Of a stretch of 64,000 nucleotides of DNA, positions 10,736-27,923 are shown piece after piece (position 1 is the stretch's first letter; each line of letters begins with the position of its first letter). Under the pieces are notes generated by a model. The model searched no databases, had not been told where the DNA came from, and worked only from the letters and a program-made list of their open reading frames with translations. Origin of the DNA: a virus; IMG/VR virus record IMGVR_UViG_3300029286_000012. The stretch is one strand, 5' to 3'. A program made the position numbers and the translations under genes.

Positions 10736-13449
10736 GTTACGTTGACGCTATTCACAGCAGGGATGAGGATCGTATCTACGTAGTAGAACGGGATAATAAC
10801 GGCAAGCGTCAATACAAAGAATATCCCACTAACTATGTATTGTATTATCCTGACCCTAAGGGTAAACATCGTAGTATCTATGGCGATCCAGTCAGTCGTT
10901 TCAGTACTCGAAAACGACAAGAGTTTGAAAAAGAAAGACGCATTCATTCAGGTAAGAAATTATTTGAAAGTGATGTTAACGTAGTCTTTCGCTGTCTAAG
11001 TGAAAACTATCTTAAAGTTGATGCTCCTAAACTTCATACTTGCTTCTTTGACATTGAGGTAGACTTTGATCCTGAGAAGGGTTTCAGTCCTACTAGCGAT
11101 CCATTCAATCCTGTAACTGCTATCAGTTGTTACTTAGATTGGCTAGACCAATGCATTACACTAGTGATTGCTCCTAAACATATGTCTAGTGAAACAGCCC
11201 AAGAAATCACTAATGAATTTGAAAACACAATGCTATTCAAATCAGAGAAGGAAATGTTTGATGTTTTCTTTCAACTCATTGAAGATGCAGATGTATTGAC
11301 TGGCTGGAACTCAGAGGGCTATGATATTCCCTATATGGTCAATCGTGTTACTAGAGTGATGAGTAAAGATGACACACGCAAGTTTTGCTTGATGGGTCAA
11401 CTTCCTAAAGCTAGAGAATACGAACGATTCGGTAAGAGTGAAACAACTTATGACTTAGTAGGTCGTATTCACTTGGACTATTTACAGTTGTACAAAAAGT
11501 ATAACTATGAATCTCGTCACAGTTATAAACTTGACTCTATCGGTGAGATGGAAGTCGGTGAAAACAAAACACAATATGAAGGTACGCTTGACCAACTGTA
11601 TAACAAAGACTTTAAAAAGTTCATTGAATACAATAGACAAGATACAATGTTGTTAGTGAAGATTCACAACAAACTTAAGTTTTTAGAATTAGCTAATCAA
11701 CTTGCACACGAAAACACAGTACTGCTTCCAACAGTAATGGGTTCAGTAGCAATGATTGAGATGGCTATTTTTAATGAGGCTCACGAACGTGGGTTAGTTG
11801 TTCCAGATAAAAAACGAAAGGTTGAAAATGAAGAAGAAATCCAGCAAGCGGCAGGTGCCTTTGTTGCTACGCCGAAAAGAGGAATGCACGAATATGTCGG
11901 GGCAGTTGACATTAACTCGCTCTATCCCTCGGTTATTCGTGCCCTCAACATGGGTGGAGAGACCATCGTTGCTCAAATCAGACAGACAATCACAGACCAG
12001 TATATGAAAGACAAGGGCCTTCGACTAGCAAGTGAGAAGAAACGCTATAAAGAAGGTGACGATGATGTGACTGGTGCCATACTATGGGAGAATCTGTTCG
12101 GTGCATTAGAGTATACTGCGATTATGAACCAAGAACGTGGTACTATGCTTACAGTTGACTTTGAAGATGGTCGTACTGAAGAAATGTCAGCGGCAGAAGT
12201 CTGGAAGATGATATTTGATAGTCATAAGCCCTGGATGCTAAGTGCTAATGGTACAATCTTTACTTATGAGAAAGAAGGTGTTGTTCCTGGTCTACTAACA
12301 CGTTGGTACTCAGACCGTAAAGAAATGCAGAAGAATCTAAAAGAAGCAACTACGACTGAAGATAGAGAATACTGGGATAAGCGACAACTTGTTCGTAAGA
12401 TTTTATTGAATTCAGCGTATGGTGCATTGTTGAATGAACATTGTAGGTTCTATGATAAACGTATAGGTCAAAGTGTTACACTAAGCGGTCGTCAAATTGT
12501 TCGTCATATGATGAGTACCATCAACGAATCAGTTGAGGGCACGTATTCACACGAAGGCAATGCAATTGTATATGGTGATACTGATAGTTGTTACTTCACT
12601 GCTTATCCCACACTGAAGCCACAGATTGATAAAGGTGAGTTAGTATGGGACAAAGAACTCTGTATCGGATTGTATGATAGTATTGCAGACCAAGCTAATG
12701 AAAGTTTCCCATCATTTATGGAGAAGGCATTTCACGCACCTCGTAAGAATGGTGAAATCATTAAAGCTGGTCGTGAACTAATTGGTGATCGTGCTATCTT
12801 TATTGTTAAGAAACGTTATGCTATTAACATCTTTGACAAAGAAGGTAAGCGTAAAGATAAAGATGGTAAGCTTGGTGATATCAAAGCTATGGGTCTTGAC
12901 TTGAAACGTGCTGATACTCCTAAATACATACAAGAATTTTTAATGAATGTATTGCAAATGATTCTGCAAGAAGGTAAAGGTCGTGATGAGGTCATTGAAG
13001 CTATCAAAGACTTTAAACGAGTATTAACTGCACAAGACAGTTGGACTAAAGGTTCTCCTAAAGGTGTTAACAAACTTACAATGTACGGTGATTTAGAAGC
13101 TAAGAGCAGTACTGGTCGTGCAAATATGCCCGGTCACGTAAGAGCGGCATTAAACTACAACTACTTGCGTAGAGTAAACAGCGACAACTATAGTCAGAAG
13201 ATTATTGATGGTATGAAGGTAGTGGTATGCAAACTTAAACCTAATCCATTAGGCTTTACCAGTATCGCATATCCTGTTGACGAATTACGATTACCAAAAT
13301 GGTTCACAGAGTTACCATTCGATGACCAAGCAATGGAACAAACATTGGTTGATGAAAAGATTGATAACTTGTTGGGAGTACTTGGTTGGGATATTCGTAG
13401 TAGTACAGATACGAATAGTACATTTGATGATTTATTCAGCTTCGGGTAA
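10732..13449 (+). CDS. Family B DNA polymerase (gp43-like)
   Basis: Exonuclease FFDIEV, GWNSEGYDIPY, YNRQD; polymerase DINSLYPS, KILLNSAYG, YGDTDS, KKRYA; TTG start. Confidence 0.97.
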   Translation: MSYVDAIHSRDEDRIYVVERDNNGKRQYKEYPTNYVLYYPDPKGKHRSIYGDPVSRFSTRKRQEFEKERRIHSGKKLFESDVNVVFRCLSENYLKVDAPKLHTCFFDIEVDFDPEKGFSPTSDPFNPVTAISCYLDWLDQCITLVIAPKHMSSETAQEITNEFENTMLFKSEKEMFDVFFQLIEDADVLTGWNSEGYDIPYMVNRVTRVMSKDDTRKFCLMGQLPKAREYERFGKSETTYDLVGRIHLDYLQLYKKYNYESRHSYKLDSIGEMEVGENKTQYEGTLDQLYNKDFKKFIEYNRQDTMLLVKIHNKLKFLELANQLAHENTVLLPTVMGSVAMIEMAIFNEAHERGLVVPDKKRKVENEEEIQQAAGAFVATPKRGMHEYVGAVDINSLYPSVIRALNMGGETIVAQIRQTITDQYMKDKGLRLASEKKRYKEGDDDVTGAILWENLFGALEYTAIMNQERGTMLTVDFEDGRTEEMSAAEVWKMIFDSHKPWMLSANGTIFTYEKEGVVPGLLTRWYSDRKEMQKNLKEATTTEDREYWDKRQLVRKILLNSAYGALLNEHCRFYDKRIGQSVTLSGRQIVRHMMSTINESVEGTYSHEGNAIVYGDTDSCYFTAYPTLKPQIDKGELVWDKELCIGLYDSIADQANESFPSFMEKAFHAPRKNGEIIKAGRELIGDRAIFIVKKRYAINIFDKEGKRKDKDGKLGDIKAMGLDLKRADTPKYIQEFLMNVLQMILQEGKGRDEVIEAIKDFKRVLTAQDSWTKGSPKGVNKLTMYGDLEAKSSTGRANMPGHVRAALNYNYLRRVNSDNYSQKIIDGMKVVVCKLKPNPLGFTSIAYPVDELRLPKWFTELPFDDQAMEQTLVDEKIDNLLGVLGWDIRSSTDTNSTFDDLFSFG

Positions 13450-13526
13450 ATTGCTATTGCATTACGCAATAAAATATAATATAATATACAACATAAACTG
13501 CCTAAATAGGTATACAAAGGAAAAAC

Positions 13527-14258
13527 ATGAAAGATTATTTACAAGATTTAATTACACACACAAACGGTCTAGGTGATGTAGACTTAATTAAAGTTTCAGG
13601 TACTGATACCGAGACAACTATCAACGCAATTTCAGAAAAGAAAACTGTTATTGTATCAGGAGTATTGAATAGCCCAATAGCTGATTTCATCGGTGTGTTC
13701 GGTATGCCTAACTTAACTAAACTCAAAACTATTCTAGGTTTTGATGACTACGATGAACACGCTAAAATTTCTGTATTACGCACTAATCGTGATGGTGTTG
13801 ATGTACCTAGTACTATTCACTTTGAAACAAAAGACGGTTCATTTGTTAATGACTATCGCTTGATGACTAAATCAATCGTTGAAGAAAAAGTTAAAAGTGT
13901 TACATTCAAGGGTACTACTTGGAATGTTGAGTTTGAGCCTACTATCGCAGGCATTCAACGACTAAAGAAACAAGCAAGTGCTAATAGTGAAGAAGAACAT
14001 TTTACATTCACAACAGTTAATGGTGACTTGAAGGTTAACTTTGGTGATCCATCAACTCACAGTGGTAACTTTGTATTTCAACCGGGTGTTACTGGTTCAT
14101 TAAACAAAGCTTGGAATTGGCCAGTTAAAGTGTTCTTAGCTATTATGGACTTGCCGGGTGACAAGAAAGTTCGTATTGCTGATGCAGGTGCTACTGAGAT
14201 TACAGTAGATTCAGGTCTGGCTACATATACATATCTATTGCCAGCTAACGCAAAATAA
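13527..14258 (+). CDS. Putative sliding clamp (gp45-like)
   Basis: 243 aa beta-rich two-domain pattern directly after the polymerase; C-terminal ATYTYLLPA. Confidence 0.65.
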   Translation: MKDYLQDLITHTNGLGDVDLIKVSGTDTETTINAISEKKTVIVSGVLNSPIADFIGVFGMPNLTKLKTILGFDDYDEHAKISVLRTNRDGVDVPSTIHFETKDGSFVNDYRLMTKSIVEEKVKSVTFKGTTWNVEFEPTIAGIQRLKKQASANSEEEHFTFTTVNGDLKVNFGDPSTHSGNFVFQPGVTGSLNKAWNWPVKVFLAIMDLPGDKKVRIADAGATEITVDSGLATYTYLLPANAK

Positions 14259-15808
14259 TGGAACAAGACAATCTATCACAAAAACAAAACCCTGATTGGG
14301 CATTGTTCTTACCTGCAGTCAGTAGTTTTTATATTGCTGGCTTGGGTAAACAACGTAAAGGTGAACAGTACTTTGATCCTGCACGTATCCCTGCACAATT
14401 TAATGGTGATGTAGAAAAACTAAACTTCTTAAATAGTAGTGAAGGTCTCTATTATTACAAATGGGGCTTGTACAGTGCTGGTCACGCAAACTTAGATACT
14501 ACTAAAAACGATCCTAGTGAAAGTATCATTAGAGAACGTGAATCTGGCACGTTTATGTTAGGTGACAGTGGTGGATTTCAGATTCTTAAAGGTCAATGGC
14601 CTGCTGATTGGAAAGATCCTAACTGCCCTAAAGCTATGATAAAGCGTAAAGCGGTGTTGAACTGGATGGATACATATATGGACTATGGTATGGTCCTTGA
14701 TATTCCTTCACAATCATTAACTACCTTTCATATGAAAGATAAGAATGGTGTCAGTCTTCACGGTATCAGTACTATTGAAGAAGCTATTAGTGCTACCCAT
14801 ATCAATAACGAATACTTCATTAAGAATCGTAATGGTAAATGTAAGTTTTTAAATGTATTACAAGGTCGTACACATAAACAAAGTGACGATTGGTATGCTG
14901 AAATGAAAAAGTATTGTGATCCAAATCAGTATCCAGACAATCATTTTAATGGTTGGGCATTCGGTGGTCAGAATAAGATTGATGTTCATTTGATGCTAAC
15001 ACGAATGGTTGATATTATCTATGATGGTTTACTGGTAGAAGGTAAACACGATTTGATTCACTGTTTGGGTACAAGTATCTTAGAGTATGCTGTATTGTTT
15101 ACTGATATTCAGAAAGCTATTCGCAAGTATCATAACCCTAAACTACAAATTACATTTGACTGTGCAAGCCCATTCTTTAGTGCGGCTAAAGGTTTAGCAT
15201 ATTTTAATACAAGTATTGAGCATAATAAAAAATGGTCATACAGTATGGAAAAGACTGCTGAAAAGAAAAGTTATGCTAATGATAATCGTAAATATCGTGA
15301 TGCTGTACTAGCTGAAGGCATCCATAAAGTCTTTACAGACAGTCCAGTAACTGATAAACTGTTACTTAAGGACTTGTGCTATAGAGGTCAAGGATTCATT
15401 GGTCAACATGGTAAAGAAACTAAAACAAGCTGGGATACGTTGAGTTATACATTGATTCAAAGTCATAATGTATGGATGCATATGAACGCTGTGCAGGAAG
15501 CTAATCGTCAATATGAAAGGGGCGTTGTACCTAAGATGTTGATGAATGAACAATTTGAACGTGTTTTGTTTAAAGATGTGATTGATGAAATTTTCAGTAA
15601 GAAAACAAAACAGGAATCTATTGATTTAATTAATCAAAACAGTAGATTGTGGATGCAATTTCAATCAGGTAGTCAAGGTATTAGTGGTAAGAAAACTATG
15701 AATGCACTAACAATGTTTGATGAATTGTTTGATGTACAAGACGAACCAGAGTTCGAAGAAGTCATTGAAGATAGCGATGATGAAATTTCTAAAATATTAG
15801 GAGAATAA
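14258..15808 (+). CDS. dpdA: TGT-fold guanine transglycosylase, DpdA-like (inserts 7-deazaguanine derivatives into DNA)
   Basis: MLGDSGGFQ catalytic motif, VLDIP, NVLQG, GWAFGG, IHCLG, TFDCAS; clustered with folE/queD/queE and the replisome. Confidence 0.8.
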   Translation: MEQDNLSQKQNPDWALFLPAVSSFYIAGLGKQRKGEQYFDPARIPAQFNGDVEKLNFLNSSEGLYYYKWGLYSAGHANLDTTKNDPSESIIRERESGTFMLGDSGGFQILKGQWPADWKDPNCPKAMIKRKAVLNWMDTYMDYGMVLDIPSQSLTTFHMKDKNGVSLHGISTIEEAISATHINNEYFIKNRNGKCKFLNVLQGRTHKQSDDWYAEMKKYCDPNQYPDNHFNGWAFGGQNKIDVHLMLTRMVDIIYDGLLVEGKHDLIHCLGTSILEYAVLFTDIQKAIRKYHNPKLQITFDCASPFFSAAKGLAYFNTSIEHNKKWSYSMEKTAEKKSYANDNRKYRDAVLAEGIHKVFTDSPVTDKLLLKDLCYRGQGFIGQHGKETKTSWDTLSYTLIQSHNVWMHMNAVQEANRQYERGVVPKMLMNEQFERVLFKDVIDEIFSKKTKQESIDLINQNSRLWMQFQSGSQGISGKKTMNALTMFDELFDVQDEPEFEEVIEDSDDEISKILGE

Positions 15809-15809
15809 T

Positions 15810-16022
15810 ATGCCATATAAAAATCGTATTAAAACACTAGAAGAATCAATTAGATTATTAGACAATCAAATTTTTCAATTAGAAAAAAACGGATCAACAG
15901 ATATTAAAAAAATATCCGAGTTAAAAGAAACTAAGGATAAATATTTTACTGATTTGCGATTAATGAATAGAGTGCAATGGGATCATGACCATAACACGGT
16001 AGACTTAGGAGATGATAGATGA
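15810..16022 (+). CDS. Small coiled-coil hypothetical protein
   Basis: ORF with AGGAG RBS. Confidence 0.6.
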   Translation: MPYKNRIKTLEESIRLLDNQIFQLEKNGSTDIKKISELKETKDKYFTDLRLMNRVQWDHDHNTVDLGDDR

Positions 16023-16474
16023 ACGAACAACATATACAAGCACTAGCTGAAAAACGTCAGCGAATTAAAGACAAAGCAGTACGTACAATTTTTGTGCGTT
16101 TTCAAAAAGAAGGTATTCATAAATACCCAGCGGCAGCAACAGACCCTAACTTGGCAACAGGTGATGAGTATGATGTTAGCTTTCTAGCAACTCCGCATAG
16201 ACACATCTTTCACTTTGAAGTGTCTATTGAAGTATTTCACAACGACCGTGATATTGAGTTTATTCAATTCAAAAGATGGTTAGAGAATCAATATTCTCAA
16301 GGCATTCTTCAATTGGATTACAAAAGTTGTGAAATGATTAGTGATGACCTCTATGATGTTATCGCAACTCGATATCCAGATCGTAATATCGTTATTCAAG
16401 TATCGGAAGATAATGAAAACGGTGCTACGATTGTTTACAATACTTATAAACCCTCTCTTTCAATCGCTATTTAA
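16019..16474 (+). CDS. dpdL: QueD-paralog T-fold protein, DpdL-like (predicted 7-carboxy-7-deazaguanine decarboxylase)
   Basis: LATPHRHIF matches LxxxHRHxF; HNDRDIEF, SCEMI, VSEDNENGA; lacks the QueD CxxxHGH motif; two genes from dpdA. Confidence 0.7.
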   Translation: MNEQHIQALAEKRQRIKDKAVRTIFVRFQKEGIHKYPAAATDPNLATGDEYDVSFLATPHRHIFHFEVSIEVFHNDRDIEFIQFKRWLENQYSQGILQLDYKSCEMISDDLYDVIATRYPDRNIVIQVSEDNENGATIVYNTYKPSLSIAI

Positions 16475-16487
16475 AGGAATTATTAAA

Positions 16488-16691
16488 ATGGCAAAACAAC
16501 AACAATCTAATCCACGTGTTCAACAACTGTTTGAGGACCTAGAAGGCTATCTAGCTTTCTGTCAGGACTATGGATACAAATACGATGAGGCAACACTATA
16601 TGATATGCGTGTTTTTGCATATCGTCAATATAGCAAAGCCTGTACAGGTAAATGGGCTAAGGATCAGTGGGCAGAGGATATGCGCCCATGA
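16488..16691 (+). CDS. Hypothetical protein
   Basis: ATG at 16488 with AAGGA RBS; FEDLEGYLAFCQDYGY. Confidence 0.6.
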   Translation: MAKQQQSNPRVQQLFEDLEGYLAFCQDYGYKYDEATLYDMRVFAYRQYSKACTGKWAKDQWAEDMRP

Positions 16692-17449
16692 AAGTAGTAT
16701 TAATTACAGGTGGATTTGATCCACTACACAGCGGACATATCGCATACATTAATGCGGCTAAAAAATTAGGAGATATGTTAGTCATCGGACTTAATAGCGA
16801 TGCTTGGTTATCTCGCAAAAAAGGTAGACCATTCTTGCCATTAGGTGAGCGAGTAGCAGTAACTTCAGCATTAGACACACCTAATGCATTATTGTTATTT
16901 GATGATAGTGATGACACTGCCAAAGATGCTATTAGACAAATCAGAGAAAACTATCCGGAAGCAACTATTGTGTTTGCTAATGGTGGTGATAGAACCAGTG
17001 ACAACATTCCAGAAATGGATATCGATGATAATAACATTGAATTCGTTTTTGGTGTAGGCGGAGAAGACAAGGTAAATTCTAGTAGTTGGATTCTCGACAC
17101 TTGGAAAGCACCCAAAACAGAACGTGAGTGGGGATACTATCGTGTATTGCATGAGGTAGATGGTACTAAAGTAAAAGAACTTACAGTAGAACCAAAACAA
17201 TCTCTTAGTATGCAAAAACATGCCAAACGTAGTGAACACTGGATCGTTACTGAAGGTAAGTGTAAGATACGTAGATATGCCGAAACGGGTGAATTGACCG
17301 AGACAATTCTAACTAAACATGATACAATTACTATTAAACCTGATGAGTGGCATCAGTTAACTAACACATTTAGTAAACCTTGTAAAATCGTTGAGATTCA
17401 ATATGGTAAGAAATGTGTAGAAGAAGATATCAAACGACAAAATGCATAA
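16688..17449 (+). CDS. Cytidylyltransferase-family nucleotidyltransferase fused to a type II mannose-6-phosphate isomerase-like cupin
   Basis: TGGFDPLHSGH (HxGH), GLNSD, FANGGDR, NSSS; C-terminal REWGYY..LSMQKH..RSEHWIV..WHQL..VEIQYG. Confidence 0.85.
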   Translation: MKVVLITGGFDPLHSGHIAYINAAKKLGDMLVIGLNSDAWLSRKKGRPFLPLGERVAVTSALDTPNALLLFDDSDDTAKDAIRQIRENYPEATIVFANGGDRTSDNIPEMDIDDNNIEFVFGVGGEDKVNSSSWILDTWKAPKTEREWGYYRVLHEVDGTKVKELTVEPKQSLSMQKHAKRSEHWIVTEGKCKIRRYAETGELTETILTKHDTITIKPDEWHQLTNTFSKPCKIVEIQYGKKCVEEDIKRQNA

Positions 17450-18641
17450 ACTATTTTACATGGGCCTAGAGCCTTACAAAGCACGATACACATTACAGTT
17501 GCAAGACTGGAATGAAAGTGTATTTAAACGTAGGGGCATTAACTATGTTATTGTCCCGGGCGAAACATTAAGTAATGACCAAGCTATCGTTACGGGACAA
17601 GTGTTGGATGCACATGGTCGCACATACTTTGGTATGAGTCAACTTATGAATCTTGTTAAGATGATGAAGCAAGGCGATGTAGGCGCAGGTGATATAGTTT
17701 ATTTTGAAGATATGTTTCAGCCCGGAATTGAGTCATTGCCTTACATTATGAAACAGATTCCGATCACAAGTCGTCCTAAGATTTTTGTTCGCTGTCTAGC
17801 ACAAAGTATTGATCCTGATGATTTCGTACACGTATGGGGTATGAGTGAATTCATGGGTCACTATGAGAAGATGGTTGATTCATTCGCTGATGGTGTACTT
17901 GCTAGTAATGAAGAAATGGTAATGCATATGAAGATTGCGGGTTGGCGTGCTCCGATCTACAATATCTCAGGCTTAGCATTTGGTAAAGAAGAAGTACGAG
18001 GTCGTATCAATAATAACATCAAGCCTTTTGATGAACGAAAGATGCGTATTGCATTCTCAGCACGTTGGGATCAAGAAAAACAACCTGATTTCTATATGGA
18101 TGTGATTGAAGAATTCTTTAACCGTTATGGTATGAAGGATCGTCATGGTGTATATCGTAGTGTAGAGTTCTGTGTGTTTAGTGGTAGTAAATTGAAAAGC
18201 AATAACGATAGTTATATGAAGCGTACACAAGATATGCAAAATCGTGGTTTGTTAAAAGTACACGAAGACCTAGATAAAAACGCATACTATGAGTTATTAA
18301 ATGATACTAGAGTATTGTTTAACTGTGCTTTACAAGACTGGGTAAGTAATACAGTTAGTGAAGCAGATGCATTGGGTTGTAATGTATTGTATCCGGCATA
18401 TCGCAGTTTCCCAGAAACATTTGCGAATGATTATACAAGACTATATACACCCTGGAGTGTTGAAGATGCAACAATTAAATTGTATAATATGTTACATCAG
18501 CCGCATGTAAATCAAGGTAAAATCAGTGATTGGACTGATGGTACTATTGATAGAATCTGTGATATTCTAGAGGGTAATGGACAACAATGGTTGCGTATGG
18601 ACACAGACTATCGCAAACATACCAGAGAGAGTAAATACTAA
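17442..18641 (+). CDS. GT-B fold glycosyltransferase
   Basis: FSARWDQEKQP, ALQDWVSNTVSEADALGC, YPAYRSFPE (GT4-like C-terminal domain). Confidence 0.75.
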   Translation: MHKLFYMGLEPYKARYTLQLQDWNESVFKRRGINYVIVPGETLSNDQAIVTGQVLDAHGRTYFGMSQLMNLVKMMKQGDVGAGDIVYFEDMFQPGIESLPYIMKQIPITSRPKIFVRCLAQSIDPDDFVHVWGMSEFMGHYEKMVDSFADGVLASNEEMVMHMKIAGWRAPIYNISGLAFGKEEVRGRINNNIKPFDERKMRIAFSARWDQEKQPDFYMDVIEEFFNRYGMKDRHGVYRSVEFCVFSGSKLKSNNDSYMKRTQDMQNRGLLKVHEDLDKNAYYELLNDTRVLFNCALQDWVSNTVSEADALGCNVLYPAYRSFPETFANDYTRLYTPWSVEDATIKLYNMLHQPHVNQGKISDWTDGTIDRICDILEGNGQQWLRMDTDYRKHTRESKY

Positions 18642-18653
18642 AAGGAGACTATT

Positions 18654-19343
18654 ATGTTTGAAACAACTTATGAAAATGAAATGTCGTATCGTTCGGCAAG
18701 CGAGGTAAACTCAGCAATGGGTCGAGTTTACGGACATATGAGTATTGCTGTTATTGTATCAATGATTGTTAGTTACTTTGTAGGCACAAGCCCAGAGTTG
18801 CTGGCATTCTTTTTTACAGGCGTAATGAAATGGATTGTAATCTTTTCACCATTAGTAGCAATTTTTGGTATTGCTATGATCCTAGGAAATAATCCTAGTA
18901 AAGGTACTGCACAGTTATGCTTGCATGGCTTTGCGGCATTGATGGGATTAAGCTTTGCTACAATCTTTGCTGTATTCACTATGGGTAGTATTGTGTCAGC
19001 ATTTATGGGTGCGGCAATACTGTTTGGTGTTATGAGTGGATATGGTTACTTTACTAAACAAAGTTTAGATAGTGTTGGAAAGTTTATGTTTGTAGGATTG
19101 ATTGCTATTATCATTGCTAGTATTGTTAATATCTTTATTGGAAGTACCGTGATGCAAATGGTAATATCAGCATTAGCTATTATCATCTTTCTTGGCTTAA
19201 CTGCCTATGACACACAAAAGATCCGTGAAGAACTAAGTGTACAAGCCAGTGATGTTGCAGAAGTACGTGGGGCATTGACGCTGTATATGGACTTTATTAA
19301 CTTGTTTATTAATCTATTACAAATTTTTGGTGATAGGAAATAA
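18654..19343 (+). CDS. Bax inhibitor-1/YccA family membrane protein
   Basis: About 7 TM segments; TAYDTQKI, GALTLYMDFINLF. Confidence 0.9.
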   Translation: MFETTYENEMSYRSASEVNSAMGRVYGHMSIAVIVSMIVSYFVGTSPELLAFFFTGVMKWIVIFSPLVAIFGIAMILGNNPSKGTAQLCLHGFAALMGLSFATIFAVFTMGSIVSAFMGAAILFGVMSGYGYFTKQSLDSVGKFMFVGLIAIIIASIVNIFIGSTVMQMVISALAIIIFLGLTAYDTQKIREELSVQASDVAEVRGALTLYMDFINLFINLLQIFGDRK

Positions 19344-19345
19344 TC

Positions 19346-19734: not shown

Positions 19735-19740
19735 TCGTGA

Positions 19741-19775
19741 TAAATACAATGTAAGCTACACAACGGTAGCTTACA
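19741..19775 (+). promoter_or_regulatory. TAAATA late-type promoter followed by a perfect 10-bp 5' hairpin (folE leader)
   Basis: TAAATA 19741-19746; TGTAAGCTAC-acaacg-GTAGCTTACA at 19750-19775. Confidence 0.6.
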
Positions 19776-19811
19776 CTTCAAAACAAAAACCATCACAAAG
19801 GAAGGTTATCT

Positions 19812-20498
19812 ATGAGTTATAATAAAACAAAAACTGATCCAGAGTTGGGTCAAAAAGTTCATCTACATCTATTAAATATGGGAGTAGAAACACCAATTGA
19901 CGACACAATTGATTTAGGTGATCGTAAGGATCGCATTGAAAAGATTGAAGGTCATTTCAAGGCTATTATGGAAACAATGGGTTTAGACCTAGATGATGAT
20001 AGTCTCATCGAAACACCCAAACGTGTTGCTAAGATGTATGTGAATGAAATCTTTTGGGGACTTGATTATGAAGCATTCCCTAAATGTACAACAGTTGACA
20101 ACAAGATGCAATATAACGAAATGGTTGTAGAGCGTAATGTTAATGTTCAATCTAACTGCGAACATCATTTTGTAGTCATCGATGGATTGGCTACTGTAGC
20201 TTATGTCCCTAAACAAAAAGTATTAGGGCTTAGTAAGATAAACCGTATCGTAGAATATTTTAGCAAAAGACCTCAAATCCAAGAGAGGTTAACAGAGCAA
20301 ATTTTTCACACCTTACAGTTCATCCTTGATACAGAAGATGTTGCAGTTATGATTGATGCACAGCATTATTGTGTTAAGTCACGCGGTGTAGAAGATACAG
20401 GTAGTAGTACTGTTACTTGTCGTTTAGGTGGAGGTTTCAAATCAGACCCCGCGGCACGTAGTGAGTTCTTACAAATTGCTAATAAAGGTTGCAAATAA
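19812..20498 (+). CDS. folE: GTP cyclohydrolase I
   Basis: ETPKRVAKMY, SNCEHHF, GLSKINRIV, RPQIQERLT, HYCVKSRG. Confidence 0.97.
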   Translation: MSYNKTKTDPELGQKVHLHLLNMGVETPIDDTIDLGDRKDRIEKIEGHFKAIMETMGLDLDDDSLIETPKRVAKMYVNEIFWGLDYEAFPKCTTVDNKMQYNEMVVERNVNVQSNCEHHFVVIDGLATVAYVPKQKVLGLSKINRIVEYFSKRPQIQERLTEQIFHTLQFILDTEDVAVMIDAQHYCVKSRGVEDTGSSTVTCRLGGGFKSDPAARSEFLQIANKGCK

Positions 20499-20695
20499 TG
20501 TTAAAAGATAGACGAGTTTTACTAGAGCAAGAAATTACAAAAGCCCACGAAGAGGCTGCTAATTTGTATTTAGATATTGTTACTAATGACGGTGATATGT
20601 CTAGTCCAGAATATCAATCTCTTAAAGATAAAATTACGAATTTACAGTTTGACCTTAACATTGTAAATAAATTAATCCACAAGGGACACCAATAA
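20498..20695 (+). CDS. Hypothetical protein
   Basis: TAATG-coupled ORF. Confidence 0.5.
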   Translation: MLKDRRVLLEQEITKAHEEAANLYLDIVTNDGDMSSPEYQSLKDKITNLQFDLNIVNKLIHKGHQ

Positions 20696-20931
20696 TGGGC
20701 TTTCGTAAACAAATGGATTACAACAGTGTACATCATCAAATCTATATGAGTGGTGTAGAACTTCATAGTAACTATAATGATGGTTTCAATCAATTTGAAA
20801 TCAAAAAAGATTTACATAAATTAAAATGGTTATTAGATGAAATTATGTCTGATAGTCCTACGTTTGCAGGTGAAGAAGAATTTTTAAAAGAACATGACCA
20901 AACTAAAATGTGGAGAGCACTTTCAAAATGA
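20695..20931 (+). CDS. Hypothetical protein
   Basis: TAATG-coupled ORF. Confidence 0.55.
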   Translation: MGFRKQMDYNSVHHQIYMSGVELHSNYNDGFNQFEIKKDLHKLKWLLDEIMSDSPTFAGEEEFLKEHDQTKMWRALSK

Positions 20932-21401
20932 TTTTCAACCACATTAAAAAACTTAAACAAGAAGGTAAAAAGATTGGTATTACTTTTAGCACATTTGACT
21001 TACTACACGCAGGCCACGTTGCTATGTTAAGTGAGGCAAAGAATCATTGTGATTACTTGATTTGTGGATTACAAACTGATCCAACTATCGATAGACCTGA
21101 TACTAAGAATAAACCCATTCAAAGTATTGTAGAACGACAAATTCAGTTAGCGGCTTGTCGCTATGTTGATGAAGTAGTGGTTTATCAAACTGAACAGGAC
21201 TTAATTGACTTGTTATTAATACTACCAGTAGATGTTCGCATACTAGGTGTAGAATATGCAGAAAAAGAATTTACCGGAAGATATGAAGGTGGAGAACGTG
21301 GCATTGAACTTGTGTTTAATGGACGTGACCATAGTTTCAGTAGTTCAAGTTTAAGAAAAAGGGTAGCTGATGCCCAGATTATTAACACTCTTAATAAATA
21401 A
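20928..21401 (+). CDS. Glycerol-3-phosphate cytidylyltransferase-like (TagD family)
   Basis: STFDLLHAGH, GLQTDP, CRYVDEV, RDHSFSSSSLR. Confidence 0.85.
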   Translation: MIFNHIKKLKQEGKKIGITFSTFDLLHAGHVAMLSEAKNHCDYLICGLQTDPTIDRPDTKNKPIQSIVERQIQLAACRYVDEVVVYQTEQDLIDLLLILPVDVRILGVEYAEKEFTGRYEGGERGIELVFNGRDHSFSSSSLRKRVADAQIINTLNK

Positions 21402-21476
21402 CTATAGCGGTCTTTGGACATCATCCCGCTTTACAAATTCTGCTGCCTATGCTATAATACAACATAGGAGAAATTC
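21395..21476 (+). promoter_or_regulatory. Structured queD leader with two promoters (TAAATA; TTTACA-N17-TATAAT) and an SD-sequestering hairpin
   Basis: Stem AGCGG 21406-10 / CCGCT 21426-30; stem CCTATG 21446-51 / CATAGG 21463-68 overlapping the SD AGGAG. Confidence 0.55.
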
Positions 21477-21959
21477 ATGGCAAACAAAAAATTCTTTTCA
21501 ACAAAAACATACAGACAAATAGGTCCTGTTGCATATCGTCAATGGCGTGCTGACAGTCATTGTAATTTAATTCATGGCTATGCTATGAGTTTTCACTTTG
21601 AGTTTGAAGCTGATACATTAGACGCACGTAACTGGGTAACTGACTTCGGTGGATTACGACCCCTCAAAGATAAACTAGAGGAATGGTTTGACCATACTCT
21701 ATTAGTCGCACAAGATGATCCTATGCGTGATGAACTATTGCGTTTAGGTGAATTGAAACTAGCAAAGATTACAGAAGTAGAACGTACTGGTTGTGAAGGT
21801 ATATCTGACTTCTTATACGAATACATTAACACAATTTTCTTACCCAACTGTGGTAGTGAAGAAGCTAAACGTGTTTGGTGTTGCAGAGTAGAGGTACGTG
21901 AGACTGATAGCAATATGGCAGGACGTAGTGGTCATAGGGAAGACGGGGAGTTTGCATAA
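21477..21959 (+). CDS. queD: 6-carboxy-5,6,7,8-tetrahydropterin synthase
   Basis: SHCNLIHGY (CxxxHG), WVTDFG, FDHTLL, GCEG, VRETDSN. Confidence 0.85.
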   Translation: MANKKFFSTKTYRQIGPVAYRQWRADSHCNLIHGYAMSFHFEFEADTLDARNWVTDFGGLRPLKDKLEEWFDHTLLVAQDDPMRDELLRLGELKLAKITEVERTGCEGISDFLYEYINTIFLPNCGSEEAKRVWCCRVEVRETDSNMAGRSGHREDGEFA

Positions 21960-22390
21960 TGTTTAGTGTACTCAAATTCATTTGGTTGATTAGTCGTTCC
22001 TCTTGGAATATTATAAACCCTAATATGAATCCTCTGCGTCATGCGCCCGTATATGTCAAATACTTTCTCAGTATCCTACTAGGCTGTTTTTGGAGTCTGG
22101 CGTTTGGTCTTTACGTTGGTGAACTACTGACTATCGGCTACAACATGATTGGACACATTGCTATCATTAGCATGGTGTTTGCTACTTGGGCAGTGTTTCG
22201 TTCAGTAGAAAATACTTATGGTCCACGCGGTGGCACAGTAGACTGGCTACGTATGCCAGATTACAGTAGCCGTTGTGACGAACTTACTGAACAACAACGA
22301 CTTGAAAAAGTACAAGAATGGAACAATCGTAATGTTTGGAACGAACCTAAACATTCTGAAAAAGATAAAGAAACTTATTACGGAGCATGA
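21959..22390 (+). CDS. Membrane hypothetical protein
   Basis: Two hydrophobic segments. Confidence 0.55.
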   Translation: MFSVLKFIWLISRSSWNIINPNMNPLRHAPVYVKYFLSILLGCFWSLAFGLYVGELLTIGYNMIGHIAIISMVFATWAVFRSVENTYGPRGGTVDWLRMPDYSSRCDELTEQQRLEKVQEWNNRNVWNEPKHSEKDKETYYGA

Positions 22391-22622
22391 GTATGACTGT
22401 TAATGAAATTATTGCCGTAATAATAATGGTAACTGTAGTAGGAATAGTACTATGGGATATACACAAAAATGGATTAAGTAAAGAAGATGAACCAAGAGAA
22501 TAAAGAACCTGAAACAGAACAATGGTTAGAAGATATAACCAAACACGCACCGGTTGTGATTCCTATTGTGGGAGCAGTATTAAGTTTTATGTTGGCTTTT
22601 ATTGCCATCACAATGGCTTGAT

Positions 22623-22841
22623 ATGGCAATAATCAAATGGATTTGCTTTGGCATTATGTTCGCAGGAGCCATAGTAGTTAGTTTTAATCTAGATCCTATA
22701 ATAGGCATTGAGCTACTATTTGTAGGCAACGCCGCTTGGTTGGTAACTGCCGTACGTACTAGAGATTGGCCTAGTGCCGCAAACTTTGGCATGCTGGCAT
22801 CAGTATGGTTTCTAGGTATGTTACAATATTATAAAGGATAA
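22623..22841 (+). CDS. Small membrane protein
   Basis: Three hydrophobic segments. Confidence 0.5.
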   Translation: MAIIKWICFGIMFAGAIVVSFNLDPIIGIELLFVGNAAWLVTAVRTRDWPSAANFGMLASVWFLGMLQYYKG

Positions 22842-22843
22842 AA

Positions 22844-23482
22844 ATGTTAGAAACAATTTGCGATACATTAGTTGAAGCATATAGACGCAACTGGATTACC
22901 AGTCGTGATGGCAATGTAAGTATTCGTCATCACGACCGTGACCACTTCTACATCACACCCAGTGGTGTTCGTAAGCAAACGATGCAACCCGACCAGTTTA
23001 AGAAGATTGGGATAATCGATCAGATTTGGCAAGAAGATCCGTCGTTGATAGAACTTCCTTATTCAGATATAAGCCAAGGATTGAGACCTAGTGGAGAATT
23101 GCCTTTGCATTTTGGATTGCAAAAGAGACTAGGACAACACAGTGATGATGTAAGAGTTGTAGTTCATTTACACCCTACTTATTGTATTGCCGCTATGCAC
23201 GCCGGTATTGATTTAAGCACTATCAGTAGTGCGTTTCCAGAATTGAATCGTTACACTAAGGTAGCACCCAATGTAAGGGATGTGGCTCCCATTAGCCAAG
23301 AGCTTGCGGATCAATGCCATAATCAATTACAATTAGACAATAAAGGCAACATTGCCTATGACATTGTAGGTATTAAAGGACACGGAGTAGTAGCAATTGA
23401 CACAAGCCCCTGGCGTGCGTTTGAACACATTGAACGATTAGAACATATTTGTCAAATCGTATTAGCATCAGGAAAATATTAA
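22844..23482 (+). CDS. Class II aldolase/adducin-family protein (FucA/AraD/MtnB-like)
   Basis: DGNVS, ITPSG, PSGELPLH, VVHLHP, GHGVV. Confidence 0.9.
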   Translation: MLETICDTLVEAYRRNWITSRDGNVSIRHHDRDHFYITPSGVRKQTMQPDQFKKIGIIDQIWQEDPSLIELPYSDISQGLRPSGELPLHFGLQKRLGQHSDDVRVVVHLHPTYCIAAMHAGIDLSTISSAFPELNRYTKVAPNVRDVAPISQELADQCHNQLQLDNKGNIAYDIVGIKGHGVVAIDTSPWRAFEHIERLEHICQIVLASGKY

Positions 23483-23483
23483 A

Positions 23484-24119
23484 ATGAGTTACATTGTAGG
23501 ATCATTGCCACCAATTAAGTGTTGGATAAAACGTGAATTTCTTTATAACTTTGAAAAGGGGCACGGAGAATTAGAACCTGCCATCTGGGTTAGTCTTAAA
23601 GCATTGCGTGGACAAGTATTTCGTATTGAAAGTTTATTACCCAATTACGGAGCATTGTATGATAAACTACCTATACACGCTTATGTATGGAAAAAAGACC
23701 ACACAGCAACGTTACCTATTGATATGTTACAGCTTTGGGACTGTATGGGGTATCGTTTTACTATCATTGAAAAAATAGGATTACGCAATTTAGGTGTTAA
23801 GTTTCTAGGTAAAGACAAGGAATGGCATTACGGAACTTATTTGTTTACTGTAGACTTTTGTGCTGACGGCATGGATGTGGACACAGGCTTTACTGAAGTT
23901 GCAGAAGAACACAAATCGTTTAATTTTATTAAGTTAGAAAATGGACAGTTTGCTTGTCAGCCTAACAACCGTTGCTTGTGGTACGATCAAAGTTTGATTC
24001 CCGGTGAAACTAAATTTCCTGATTTTCAGGCGGCTCAAAATCTATGGACAGTAGATGGTACACGTAAATGGAGTGCAGGAGATGATTGGTTTTATTCTAT
24101 TGAGGAAAAACATGAATAG
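23484..24119 (+). CDS. Hypothetical protein
   Basis: 211 aa; LQLWDC, EHKSFN, QPNNR motifs; function unknown. Confidence 0.6.
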   Translation: MSYIVGSLPPIKCWIKREFLYNFEKGHGELEPAIWVSLKALRGQVFRIESLLPNYGALYDKLPIHAYVWKKDHTATLPIDMLQLWDCMGYRFTIIEKIGLRNLGVKFLGKDKEWHYGTYLFTVDFCADGMDVDTGFTEVAEEHKSFNFIKLENGQFACQPNNRCLWYDQSLIPGETKFPDFQAAQNLWTVDGTRKWSAGDDWFYSIEEKHE

Positions 24120-24303
24120 TTTAGAAAAAATTTGGGCAAGAGCAACCGGCCATTTAATGGGTAATACAGATGATGACAGGCCTGATGTTCCTATTCTTAC
24201 ATTGGGTGAAGCGAGGATTGCATTGTTCCTAAAGACTTTCTGGGTGGTGCTACATGTGATAACATGTTGTGTCATTATAGCAAATACTATACGTCATTGG
24301 TAA
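24112..24303 (+). CDS. Small membrane hypothetical protein
   Basis: ATG at 24112 with GAGGA RBS. Confidence 0.55.
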   Translation: MNSLEKIWARATGHLMGNTDDDRPDVPILTLGEARIALFLKTFWVVLHVITCCVIIANTIRHW

Positions 24304-24306
24304 TAA

Positions 24307-24525
24307 ATGAACAAAAAAATAGAAGAACTAGCAAAAGAAGCAGGGTTTGACTGGGCATTAAAACGAGCATCACTTGCAGGTCAAACTGCTGATAGTGAAT
24401 CTATTGAAAAATTTGCTGAATTAATTATACGTGATTGTGCTAAACAAGTTAATCACATTTACAAACAAGGTGGCGGCACTTGGGGTGAAGTCATCCTTAC
24501 CAACTACAACATAAAAATCAAATGA
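24307..24525 (+). CDS. Hypothetical protein (KFAELII family)
   Basis: EKFAELIIRDC; paralogous motif at 46389. Confidence 0.55.
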   Translation: MNKKIEELAKEAGFDWALKRASLAGQTADSESIEKFAELIIRDCAKQVNHIYKQGGGTWGEVILTNYNIKIK

Positions 24526-25370
24526 GTCATTTAAAAGTATCAGAATTATTTTATAGCATTCAAGGTGAGGGTAGATACATGGGTGTTCCCAGTGTGTTCT
24601 TACGAACATATGGATGTAATTTTACATGCGGTGGCTTCGGTATGCCTAAGGGAGAAATGAGTAGTGAGAGAGATGTTATTGCAATTAAAGCAGAAGATTA
24701 TACAGATTATAAATCCTTACCGCTTGTCAGTACAGGATGTGATAGTTACGCAAGCTGGGACCCTCGCTTTAAACATCTTAGTCCTGTTATCGCTACCGAT
24801 AGTATTGTTGACAGCATTATGGATATACTTCCTCACAAGCGTTGGATGGATGAACACCTTGTTATCACAGGTGGTGAACCTCTTCTTGGATGGCAAAGAG
24901 CGTATCCAGACTTACTTTCAAATGAAAAAATGAGAAGTCTTAAAGAGATTACATTCGAAACTAACGGTACACAAGAACTTAGTCAAGACCTCACAATATA
25001 TTTACAGAAGTGGAAGATTAACAGAGAAAAGAATGCATTAACATTTAGTGTTAGTCCTAAACTAAGTATCAGTGGCGAGAAGTGGCAAGAAGCAATTTGT
25101 CCTAGTATTATTCGTCAATATGAAAGTGTAGGTTTTGTTTATCTTAAGTTTGTAGTAGCAACAGAAGATGATGCACTTGAAGCAGATAAAGCAGTAAAAG
25201 AATTTCGCAATGGTGGATTTAGAGGCCCTGTATACTTCATGCCATGCGGTGGCGTAGAGTCATTATATAAACTAAATGCAAAGAATGTTGCTATTGAAGC
25301 AATGAATCGTGGTTATCGTTATAGTGATAGACTGCAAGTACCGTTATTTAAAAATGAGTGGGGAACATGA
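24522..25370 (+). CDS. queE: 7-carboxy-7-deazaguanine synthase (radical SAM)
   Basis: ELFYSIQGEG, VFLRTYGCNFTC...GCDS, ITGGEPLL, FETNGT, SVSPKL, SDRLQ. Confidence 0.93.
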   Translation: MSHLKVSELFYSIQGEGRYMGVPSVFLRTYGCNFTCGGFGMPKGEMSSERDVIAIKAEDYTDYKSLPLVSTGCDSYASWDPRFKHLSPVIATDSIVDSIMDILPHKRWMDEHLVITGGEPLLGWQRAYPDLLSNEKMRSLKEITFETNGTQELSQDLTIYLQKWKINREKNALTFSVSPKLSISGEKWQEAICPSIIRQYESVGFVYLKFVVATEDDALEADKAVKEFRNGGFRGPVYFMPCGGVESLYKLNAKNVAIEAMNRGYRYSDRLQVPLFKNEWGT

Positions 25371-25609
25371 AAAAATATCAGCACATTGTATTATTGCCAT
25401 GGGATTATTGGAAATACTATATGGGACCAGACGGTTCTATAAGAGATAAAAATAATCCATTAGATTGGTGTGTTGATACTTTTGGTCCTGGTAGAACAAA
25501 GTCTAGGTGGACGTATGAATATAAAGATACACAAGATGATGGATTTGAAACTACGTTCAAATTCACAGATGAGAAAGATTATATTCATTTTATGTTACGA
25601 TGGAGATAG
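25367..25609 (+). CDS. Hypothetical protein
   Basis: WC..TFG...FTDEKDYIHFMLRW phage-type small protein. Confidence 0.55.
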   Translation: MKKYQHIVLLPWDYWKYYMGPDGSIRDKNNPLDWCVDTFGPGRTKSRWTYEYKDTQDDGFETTFKFTDEKDYIHFMLRWR

Positions 25610-25611
25610 TT

Positions 25612-25839
25612 ATGCCACTAGATAGCATGGGTCATACTTCTGAGTTTAATCGTAATAGTTATCTAGGAGCAGAACTTAAATTTGTTTGGTTACCTGAAAG
25701 ATGCAATCTAACAGGTAAACGTATCTGGTTAGTAAAAGCTTACAGACTAACTAGTATCTGGCACGGCCCCGATGCTGCCGTATTAGAACACAGTTGGCAC
25801 GATAAGAATACCCATATTATGTGGTTATTAAAAAGGTAA
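25612..25839 (+). CDS. Hypothetical protein
   Basis: ORF with GGAG RBS. Confidence 0.5.
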   Translation: MPLDSMGHTSEFNRNSYLGAELKFVWLPERCNLTGKRIWLVKAYRLTSIWHGPDAAVLEHSWHDKNTHIMWLLKR

Positions 25840-26013
25840 ATATATGTATGAATTAAGATATCTTGTCCGAAACGGTTGGGACGGACCAGAAAAAGTGTTA
25901 CAATATAGAACACAAATTGAAGTAACAGATTATAGTACAACCACTGATAAAGGTAGTTTTACTAAAAAGCGTGAATGGACTGAATGGCAAGATGTGCCCA
26001 CAGTGAAAGATAA

Positions 26014-27405
26014 ATGAGAACATACGATAAACGAATTGGCTTCTTAGTAAGCTCACAAACATTGATACCACATGGTGGTATAGGACAATTTACAAAAAGC
26101 TTTTGTGAATTGATGGATAGTCATAATATTAAAGTTGATATCATTACTGATAAACAACCGCAGAATACAGATTTCATCAAGTCACTTAATGCAAAAATTA
26201 TCGCACCGACTAATGTATTAAAATACACAGACCATAGTGCTATCTTTATGTATGGTGATACATTCTGCTATGAGCGTATGGCCAACTTCCGTAATAGTAT
26301 TGTTGAAGCACTAGAAGAAAATATGTATGATGCACTCGTATGTAATACATATGAAACTGTGCAATTAGCTTCAACTATGGGATTAGAAGATATTATTCAA
26401 ATTATTGCGTACACTCACTTAGAAAGTCAAATCTTTACTAATACTTCAAATCCATTTCTATTAAGTACGAATGAAATGATGCGTAAACAATTAGAGATGA
26501 ATGCATTGTTTATAGGGACACAAAGTAAATACAATCAATTGCAATTTCAAAATGCATATGAATTACCTATCCCATTGCCAGAAAAAGATTTATTAAAAGA
26601 ACACCATAAGCCACGTGAAGGTGTACTGTTTATTGGTAGATGGGAAGAGGGTAAGAATCCCGAACTCTATTTAGATTTAATTGAGCAAACACGATTGCCA
26701 GCAAGAGTAATGACAAGTGCGACTGGTGCTAAAAAGTTTGAAGCACGATTAAAAGAAATTGGTGTACCATATGAAATTCGTATAGGTATTATTGGTCAAG
26801 AGAAGGTTGATTTCATAACTAGTTGTCGTGTTGCATTTAATCCTAGTTTAGTTGAGAGTTACGGGATTGCATTTTTAGAACAAATGACACAAATGCCAAC
26901 TGTTGCGTTAGATAATATACGATGGACTAACAATTTTAATAGTCAATATTTTTTCACTTGTACAAAACAAACAATGGTAACTGTAGTGGAAGCGTTGTAT
27001 CATTCATATGACACTGCACAAAGTTGGTATGATGAAGGCTCATTAAAACATACTCAAACTATGGATAGTTTAGTATTTCATAAATGGAATGATTGTTTTA
27101 ATCAATTTGCTTGTAAACAATCAAGGAACAGTACTGCAGGTATTTGCAAGACTCTCACTTCTCCAAATTTAACTGTTAGATATGCAGATTTTATTGCAAC
27201 CCTAAACAGAAGAATAATCTGCATTGATGATGCCCGTAGTGTGTTTACAAACAAATACAAATATCGTGTAATTTATACTGATGACGATACATATTTGACT
27301 CTTGATCCTGCATTTGTACCCGCACCAATTGTAATATTGCAACCAACTATACAATCAAATCTTACCGGTAACCCAATGGAAGATTTGTTTGAAATTGAGA
27401 AATAA
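26014..27405 (+). CDS. GT4-family (GT-B) glycosyltransferase
   Basis: PHGGIGQF, LFIGRWEEGKNP, NPSLVESYGIAFLE (ExxGxxxxE). Confidence 0.85.
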   Translation: MRTYDKRIGFLVSSQTLIPHGGIGQFTKSFCELMDSHNIKVDIITDKQPQNTDFIKSLNAKIIAPTNVLKYTDHSAIFMYGDTFCYERMANFRNSIVEALEENMYDALVCNTYETVQLASTMGLEDIIQIIAYTHLESQIFTNTSNPFLLSTNEMMRKQLEMNALFIGTQSKYNQLQFQNAYELPIPLPEKDLLKEHHKPREGVLFIGRWEEGKNPELYLDLIEQTRLPARVMTSATGAKKFEARLKEIGVPYEIRIGIIGQEKVDFITSCRVAFNPSLVESYGIAFLEQMTQMPTVALDNIRWTNNFNSQYFFTCTKQTMVTVVEALYHSYDTAQSWYDEGSLKHTQTMDSLVFHKWNDCFNQFACKQSRNSTAGICKTLTSPNLTVRYADFIATLNRRIICIDDARSVFTNKYKYRVIYTDDDTYLTLDPAFVPAPIVILQPTIQSNLTGNPMEDLFEIEK

Positions 27406-27923
27406 TGATGAAACAAAAAGTTATAGATTTTATTAATAGTAACAAGTTTAAAAATAAGTTTGGAATACCCTTCGTCATTTTTGACGGAGAGCTAAAAAAA
27501 TACAAAACCGATAAATTACCAAATACCTGTGGTATATATATTACTCATAGTGACAAGTTAGGAATAATATATATAGGAATGACTGAATCAAGTGCTAATA
27601 GTAGATTTGAAAGGCACATGGGTAGGGCAGACAAAGGTAAAGATTATGACAAAAATAAACCTCATAAAGTTTGGGATTATTTTCATAGCTGGTGTAAAAC
27701 AGAAAGGTATAGTTTAGAACAAGATAGCGATTATATTTTTGTGTCTTTCCAAAACAAAATTACGAAAAAACAATTAGAATTCTTGGAAAGCGGATTAATC
27801 TTTGAATTTCAAACTTTACTGAATGATGATTGTTTTGAATGGTTTGGTTTTCAACAGTTAGAAAATCTTAAAGGAACTTTGTCCACGTCAAGAGATACAA
27901 CAGATTTATTTGAAGGATTATGA
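27405..27923 (+). CDS. GIY-YIG endonuclease (probable free-standing homing endonuclease)
   Basis: CGIYITH...IYIGMT...SRFERH...LESGLI...LLN. Confidence 0.75.
   Translation: MMKQKVIDFINSNKFKNKFGIPFVIFDGELKKYKTDKLPNTCGIYITHSDKLGIIYIGMTESSANSRFERHMGRADKGKDYDKNKPHKVWDYFHSWCKTERYSLEQDSDYIFVSFQNKITKKQLEFLESGLIFEFQTLLNDDCFEWFGFQQLENLKGTLSTSRDTTDLFEGL

Follow-up and report, generated by a model that had tools for sequence, protein, structure and literature searches.

A polymerase-like tail on two candidate DNA-modification enzymes of an uncultured jumbo phage points to docking on the sliding clamp

We analyzed a stretch of 64,000 nucleotides from the IMG/VR virus record IMGVR_UViG_3300029286_000012 (hereafter, the window), which encodes a family B DNA polymerase, a predicted sliding clamp, a DpdA-like DNA transglycosylase candidate, and a GT-B (GT4-like) glycosyltransferase candidate (Table 1). 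Our data show that the C-terminal tails of the polymerase, the DpdA-like protein, and the GT4-like protein have the consensus [FM]-[DE]-[DE]-L-F-x-[FVI] in common, and that it is found in no other open reading frame (ORF) of the 99 (20,471 residues) in the window. We consider it likely that these tails represent the clamp-docking epitope of the polymerase, carried also by the two DNA-modification enzymes, and that they would tie DNA modification to replication. An earlier sequence-only reading of the same DNA had proposed that a clamp-type motif links the transglycosylase and the glycosyltransferase to the replisome, and both the conservation of the motif and its covariation with the polymerase tail support that proposal. 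That reading had also located TFDDLFSFG at the end of the polymerase, TMFDELFDV within an acidic tail of the DpdA-like protein, and PMEDLFEIEK behind a Pro-rich linker at the end of the GT4, and the sequence agrees in all three cases.

The polymerase is of the T4 gp43 type, and an alignment of its thumb domain with the T4 and RB69 enzymes extends to ~46 residues before their ends; its tail is therefore positionally equivalent to their clamp-binding tails. In addition, the tail is kept in 79 of the 79 relatives whose polymerase end lies inside the locus, the 80th being cut at a contig end. Across the window ORFs, there are 8 instances of the simpler string [DE]LF; 4 fall within the last 30 residues and 3 at most 4 residues from the end. 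When the strict motif was sought in a relative with a complete genome, the polymerase and the DpdA-like protein were the only proteins to carry it. As a separate observation, the polymerase gene of PA5oct (L001:1-4831) is split by a Hef-like homing endonuclease gene, with the clamp-type tail on the C-terminal fragment.

At least 119 of 120 database homologs of the DpdA-like protein retain the core F-[DEN]-x-L-F, and the three residues past the motif are hypervariable (entropy of 2.2-2.3 bits) beside the invariant core positions. A second DpdA clade (80 loci, 66-81% identity to a different reference) displays ..T-x-F-x-x-L-F-[DE]-V, which is followed by a long acidic tail. A large search for homologs of the DpdA-like protein returned close relatives only (at least 81% identity) and was uninformative on distant lineages. 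The acidic tail beyond the DpdA-like epitope may act as a mimic of DNA, as an autoinhibitory element, or as an additional docking site. Long acidic tails analogous to it are also found in PA5oct and in the second clade, the latter with a conserved ..LDETKLEELEDEQL.

The tail of the GT4 was surveyed in 80 IMG/VR relatives (65-97% identity), which yielded 78 readable tails, 57 of them distinct. LF stands 1-4 residues from the C-terminus in every one of these 78 tails, the position two after LF is mostly aromatic or aliphatic, and the E/P-rich acidic linker ahead of LF varies among the relatives in both length and sequence. The enzyme is not universal in these phages, since no GT4 was found in four IMG/VR records of the second DpdA clade, one of which is complete.

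The 3' end of the GT4 gene in the window has a history that bears on the role of the tail. In 78 of the 80 relatives, the end of the GT4 gene and the start of the epimerase gene share an ATGA overlap, with no ORF of the GIY-YIG type between them. Such an ORF is present in 3 genomes only (the window and the loci L084 and L085) and is missing, with conserved flanks, in those 78 relatives. Because the last 27 bases of the ORF in the window are homologous at the DNA level to uninterrupted GT4 3' ends, the ATGA shared with the epimerase gene included, a homing endonuclease gene has evidently inserted immediately before the former GT4 epitope, into which its own ORF now reads. In L085, the endonuclease ORF occurs without the relic of the GT4 end. 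Each of the three interrupted GT4 genes encodes an unrelated Pro-rich tail with D-L-F-x-I or T-L-F-K-F at its end. LF was thus regained on Pro-rich tails after the insertion, which argues that selection keeps the epitope on the GT4. The sequence-only reading had listed the peptide TTDLFEGL, at the end of the endonuclease ORF, along with the three others; the peptide is indeed there, but we rejected this ORF as a fourth clamp client, given that its peptide is the displaced old terminus of the GT4 and not a tail of independent origin.

We compared the DpdA-like tail with the polymerase tail of the same phage in further lineages. The polymerase of PA5oct ends in FDSLFGW and its DpdA-like protein carries FNSLFDV followed by an acidic tail, with F[DN]SLF occurring in these two proteins only among 428 ORFs. 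Vibrio phage 2.275.O (V2275) has NTDLFDW at the polymerase end and NNDLFGW at the DpdA-like end, and Phosso has FNDLFTF and ..EGLF, respectively, both terminal. In the L227 lineage, the polymerase ends in NKFFSWG, and NKFFSF plus six residues is found in the DpdA-like protein; in the L236 lineage, the polymerase end FNLFFS is paired with NTFFTGL.. in the DpdA-like protein. Four IMG/VR genomes (G004-G007) pair TFxxLF.. in the polymerase with xFxxLF.. in the DpdA-like protein. Thus, the tails switch along with the polymerase across lineages, including to FF and to a terminal W. A pairing score, defined as the number of identical positions in 7-mers that were aligned by hand, reached 43 within genomes vs a random mean of 30.2 (11 genomes), a value attained by 25 of 200,000 permutations.

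The same correspondence is found in BUCT-ZZ01, a T4-like cyanophage from another phage family. There, gp43 ends in ..TLDDFFS, a GT4 homolog (39% identity) in ..SLEDFFND, and a putative DpdA in ..SLDSFFD, so that all three proteins have the tail form [ST]L[DE]xFF in common. The gene for the GT4 homolog directly follows QueE-QueD-FolE, and the next gene encodes the putative DpdA, whose tie to the tRNA-guanine transglycosylase (TGT) family is limited to a DSGGLQ motif and a weak profile alignment (probability of 21%).

The sequence-only reading had made its proposal hinge on conservation of the motif among homologs of DpdA and GT4; the motif is conserved in both and covaries with the polymerase tail. 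We accordingly find it barely credible that the resemblance is coincidental and the tails are unrelated acidic low-complexity ends. A C-terminal LF is not rare alone (in the complete genome of the relative, LF lies within the last six residues of 7 ORFs vs ~5 expected), but coincidence sits poorly with its presence in all the GT4 tails read, with the near-invariant core in the DpdA-like homologs, with its return after the endonuclease insertion, and with the FF and terminal-W variants that change in concert with the polymerase.

The protein on which the tails would dock is encoded directly upstream of the DpdA-like gene. This ORF gave no Pfam match and nothing in PADLOC, but its AlphaFold2 (AF2) model is of high confidence (predicted local distance difference test [pLDDT] of 96.8 and predicted template modeling score [pTM] of 0.91) and consists of two beta-alpha-beta-beta-beta domains. 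A Foldseek comparison with PCNA chains returned a probability of 1.0 and TM scores of 0.62-0.72. Its homologs fall into 601 representative clusters, with two phage records labeling such homologs as PCNA or clamp. Judged by its modeled fold, then, the ORF is a PCNA/gp45-type sliding clamp, and the clamp label given to it by the sequence-only reading is borne out by that fold and by the PCNA matches. A clamp-loader-like AAA+ gene is also present in the complete genome of a close relative. PA5oct, V2275, and several metagenomic lineages likewise encode the polymerase, the clamp, and the DpdA-like protein in this order.

Since the sequence-only reading had suggested multimer modeling of the peptides on the clamp, a complex was predicted from a clamp trimer (120-row alignment) and the 44-residue GT4 tail (32-row alignment), together with three controls. 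The interaction prediction score from aligned errors (ipSAE) was 0.48 (runs of 0.47-0.51) for the clamp with the tail vs 0.03, 0.00, and 0.00 for the controls. The partner pLDDT was at least 41, at least 34% of the contacts were common to the runs, and no interface was reported. When the tool was calibrated, the mark was attained by 58 of 80 solved complexes and by 2 of 110 mismatched pairs; at scores of 0.60 or below, it was attained by 7 of the 80 solved complexes and by both mismatched pairs. These counts are only roughly valid for a multi-copy job, and memory of solved PCNA-peptide complexes may contribute to the prediction. The modeling, therefore, lends weak support to the proposed contact and represents a small addition to the evidence.

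An alternative is that the shared tail docks another replisome partner, such as the clamp loader, the single-strand-binding protein, the polymerase itself, or a scaffold of the replication compartment, in which case replication would still recruit the enzymes, though through a different contact. Such a partner is compatible with evidence that consists of similarity to the polymerase tail and of a complex model giving weak support; moreover, two different gp45 sites have been reported for the T4 tail (PMC2988020), and the detailed mode is uncertain even there. We nevertheless regard it as unlikely, given that the polymerase tail occupies the position of the clamp-binding tails of T4 and RB69, that several lineages have the clamp gene flanked by the polymerase and DpdA-like genes, and that the complex controls scored 0.00-0.03 vs 0.48.

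How the two enzymes are assigned also matters for the clamp-docking interpretation. In the DpdA-like protein, D103 (in DSGGFQ) and D301 (in FDC) are invariant among 7 sequences with identities down to 28%. A profile of this family matched a phage "TGT domain" protein from Vibrio phage GR7B (hhalign probability of 96.8%, E value of 2.7e-10), which itself scores 24.1 bits on PF01702, under the cut-off of 26.3. A protein atlas points to a TGT-like cluster as well. The fold model is poor (pLDDT of 46, from a shallow alignment), with a beta-alpha pattern; Foldseek ranked TGT and DpdA highest for it, at E values of at least 0.14. Searches of Pfam and PADLOC gave no match to the protein, and PDB chains, searched with the single sequence and with the 7-sequence profile, gave nothing meaningful. 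On account of the hallmark motifs, the GR7B profile match, the atlas, the fold hint, and the FolE, QueD-like, and QueE-like context, the ORF is a probable member of the TGT/DpdA superfamily. The GT4 ORF scores 21.6 and 20.4 bits on Glycos_transf_1 and Glyco_trans_1_4, under their cut-offs of 27 and 26.4, and a PADLOC search with it gave nothing; the BUCT-ZZ01 homolog scores 24.6 bits, and homologs from Xanthomonas phages are annotated as glycosyltransferases. The DpdA and GT4 labels of the sequence-only reading therefore hold as probable assignments, while neither protein reaches a curated family threshold.

Another possibility is that the tails do bind the clamp but for a purpose other than modifying nascent DNA during replication, such as clamp-dependent regulation or sequestration of the enzymes, action on clamps that stay on DNA for late transcription, or a GT4 that glycosylates a non-DNA substrate. 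Enzymes of the GT4 family usually act on sugars, lipids, or proteins, and the Bax1-I membrane protein and sugar-nucleotide enzymes of the locus could serve surface glycans. We judge this to be decidedly unlikely: a GT4 homolog lies in a QueE-QueD-FolE-GT4-putative DpdA operon of an unrelated phage family, an enzyme acting on something other than DNA would gain little from a clamp tether, and the motif is carried by DNA-related proteins only.

Several points weigh against the interpretation that the tails dock both modification enzymes on the clamp. The 7-mer pattern [FM][DE][DEQK][LF]F[DESTV][FVI], of which the window has 3 occurrences, all in C-terminal tails, vs 0.02 expected from within-protein shuffles, was defined post hoc from data already seen; the main weight is therefore placed on conservation and covariation. 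As for covariation, its lineages are partly kin (G004-G007 and L227 are relatives), its 7-mers were aligned by hand, and the Phosso DpdA-like tail resembles its own polymerase tail weakly. As for conservation, the DpdA-like motif is part of a more extended conserved stretch (..SGKKT-NA-T-F..), and its conservation therefore does not single out LF. The distant TGT-domain homolog of Vibrio phage GR7B (L205:1117-2730) has a Lys-rich tail of ~45 residues and no epitope; this tail may be an alternative means of holding DNA. Both enzyme assignments fall under the curated family thresholds, and the DpdA-like fold model is poor. Finally, an interaction between the T4 alpha-glucosyltransferase and gp45 was proposed in 2004, but in vitro and in vivo pull-downs found no such interaction (2025 preprint; Nucleic Acids Research 2026).

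Taking both sides together, we infer a physical binding of the tails to the clamp, a coupling to replication, and the chemistry and order of two modification steps, as follows. The C-terminal hydrophobic-acidic peptide of the polymerase would dock the sliding clamp, as it does in T4 and RB69, and the DpdA-like and GT4 enzymes would dock the same clamp through their flexible C-terminal tails. Because a clamp trimer would offer three docking pockets, clamps at or behind the fork could carry the enzymes along the newly made duplex. The DpdA-like enzyme would then exchange guanine for a 7-deazaguanine base on the new DNA, and the GT4 would probably add a sugar to the modified base. The further suggestion of the sequence-only reading, that host DNA would be spared in this way, is speculative. 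A bolder extension, which we rate as possible but doubtful, is that the clamp serves as an assembly line for hypermodification, where the DpdA-like enzyme would supply the base and the GT4 would follow with a sugar from the neighboring sugar-nucleotide enzymes. Such an assembly line would yield a glycosylated 7-deazaguanine, and the tail would have been swapped among unrelated phage families and matched to the local polymerase in each.

The genes around these proteins are summarized in Table 1. Those from the conserved 151-aa partner to the QueE-like protein were assigned from Pfam matches and from BLAST matches to Phosso, BUCT-ZZ01, and metagenomic modules. Compared with the corresponding genes of these three sources, the 151-aa partner and the GT1-like glycosyltransferase are mostly 57-68% identical, with a few pairs at 19-38%. 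In the metagenomic lineages, the polymerase (52-57% identity) and the clamp (30-41%) are less conserved than these two proteins, whose conservation suggests a modification module that is either mobile or strongly constrained. Despite the presence of FolE, QueD-like, and QueE-like proteins, no QueC was recognized among the ORFs scanned in the cluster (positions 14258-28744 of the window), and the inserted base may therefore not be preQ0. Virion DNA of PA5oct is known to resist several restriction enzymes, in a pattern that suggests a modified G (PMC12191111).

Table 1. Positions of the genes and C-terminal peptides discussed in the text, numbered along the 64,000-nucleotide window
Feature	Position	Strand	Basis
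Family B DNA polymerase, T4 gp43 type	10732..13449	+	Pfam DNA_pol_B, phrog_262 matches
Presumed clamp-binding epitope ..STFDDLFSFG, polymerase end	13420-13446 (stop to 13449)	+	Last nine codons and stop
Sliding clamp, predicted PCNA/gp45 two-domain fold	13527..14258	+	AF2 model, Foldseek
Divergent TGT/DpdA-like DNA transglycosylase candidate	14258..15808	+	DSGGFQ, FDC; profile link; directly after clamp gene
Polymerase-like epitope TMFDELFDV in DpdA-like tail	15710..15736	+	Core kept in homologs
Acidic 23-residue tail past epitope, conserved IEDSDD patch	15737..15805	+	Kept in relatives
Conserved 151-aa partner (phrog_17812)	16019-16474	+	BLAST matches
Nucleotidyltransferase-cupin protein	16667-17449	+	Pfam/BLAST
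Second glycosyltransferase, GT1-like, 399 aa	17442-18641	+	Pfam/BLAST
Bax1-I family membrane protein, in the middle of the deazaguanine/sugar cluster	18654-19343		Pfam E 1.6e-52
FolE	19812-20498	+	Pfam/BLAST
Cytidylyltransferase-like protein	20910-21401	+	Pfam/BLAST
QueD-like protein	21477-21959	+	Pfam/BLAST
Class II aldolase	22844-23482	+	Pfam/BLAST
QueE-like protein	24522-25370	+	Pfam/BLAST
GT-B (GT4-like) glycosyltransferase candidate	26014..27405	+	Pfam Glyco_trans_1_4 E 2.8e-4, under curated cut-off
Terminal epitope ..NPMEDLFEIEK after Pro-rich linker, GT4 end	27373-27402 (stop to 27405)	+	Tail conservation
GIY-YIG homing endonuclease ORF, inserted at 3' end of GT4 gene	27405..27923	+	Pfam GIY-YIG E 6e-4, under cut-off
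Relic of ancestral GT4 C-terminus, TTDLFEGL and stop	27897..27923	+	DNA homology to GT4 3' ends
NAD-dependent sugar epimerase/dehydratase, downstream of GT4	27920..28744	+	Pfam Epimerase E 4.8e-36

Similar tails were also observed on a few other proteins. In Phosso, protein 228 (135 aa; L226:2788-3192), encoded between FolE and QueE, ends in ..NDLFDFG like the Phosso polymerase, and it may be an additional client of the clamp within the deazaguanine pathway. The genome G001 encodes a 63-aa protein (9007-9198, minus strand) with ..DEELFEV and an acidic end, and V2275 encodes a 74-aa protein (118713-118937) that ends in ..SLFEW; both may be small clamp-binding regulators with a role comparable to that of T4 gp33. 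The other proteins with a C-terminal LF in PA5oct and V2275 are unannotated hypothetical proteins.

The window has a GC content of ~36%, and nearly all of its genes lie on the plus strand. Among phage records, the best matches of its polymerase are to jumbo phages, namely Sinorhizobium phage Phosso (49% identity) and Atu_ph07 (47%), followed by Vibrio phage 2.275.O and RaK2-like phages (~43-44%), and a nucleotide search of the window against phage records found no near match. More than 200 related contigs are present in IMG/VR, including records of 348-352 kb rated complete by CheckV, and the source of the window is thus evidently an abundant, uncultured jumbo phage of roughly 350 kb.

Short linear motifs that recruit enzymes to clamps are well established. 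They are found in eukaryotic and archaeal PCNA clients with a PIP box (DNMT1, UNG2, FEN1, and ligase I), and bacterial repair proteins have beta-clamp-binding motifs. As in these clients, a short linear motif would here tether DNA-modifying or base-excising enzymes and couple their action to replication, whereas the motif sequence and the phage context differ. The consensus found here, F-x-x-L-F-x-hydrophobic, also differs from the T4 form.

The closest parallel is the gp45 toolbelt of T4 and RB69. The hydrophobic-acidic C-termini of T4 gp43, gp33, and gp55 are interchangeable clamp epitopes on divergent linkers (PMC2988020). The system described here resembles it in having a short hydrophobic-acidic C-terminal peptide on a variable linker, near-identical between the polymerase and the clients, and a phage-encoded PCNA-like clamp (trimeric in T4 and RB69; here, the fold is taken from a model). 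It differs in that the clients are candidate DNA-modifying enzymes rather than transcription factors, and in that the DpdA-like epitope is internal and followed by a 23-residue acidic tail. The arrangement also resembles the T4 alpha-glucosyltransferase proposal, in which a DNA glycosyltransferase rides on the clamp and modifies DNA during replication. No shared tail motif underlies the T4 claim, whereas the link here is a conserved polymerase-like epitope. The DpdA-like protein has DSGGFQ and FDC in common with phage and bacterial DpdA (the DNA preQ0 insertase; PDB 7ui4), along with co-located 7-deazaguanine synthesis genes, but it is ~100-150 residues longer, has a clamp-type tail, and is encoded beside a clamp gene.

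Our literature searches found neither a TGT-type base-exchange enzyme nor a glycosyltransferase among the known clamp clients, and they turned up no description of DpdA binding to a clamp or of DNA that contains a glycosylated deazaguanine. Hence, the tethering principle is known, and what is new is the client classes, i.e., DNA-modifying enzymes, and the distinct consensus. Base exchange by DpdA is post-replicative and must reach a large fraction of the guanines of a genome of hundreds of kb in one infection cycle. If our interpretation is correct, a clamp tether would provide a concrete mechanism by which DpdA keeps up with new DNA, and the GT4 would represent the first sequence-based case of a replisome-coupled DNA glycosyltransferase, an idea that has been debated for T4 since 2004. 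Culturable relatives exist in PA5oct, BUCT-ZZ01, Phosso, and Vibrio phage 2.275.O. More generally, the tail would be a simple marker with which to pick out DNA-acting enzymes among the unannotated glycosyltransferases of phages.

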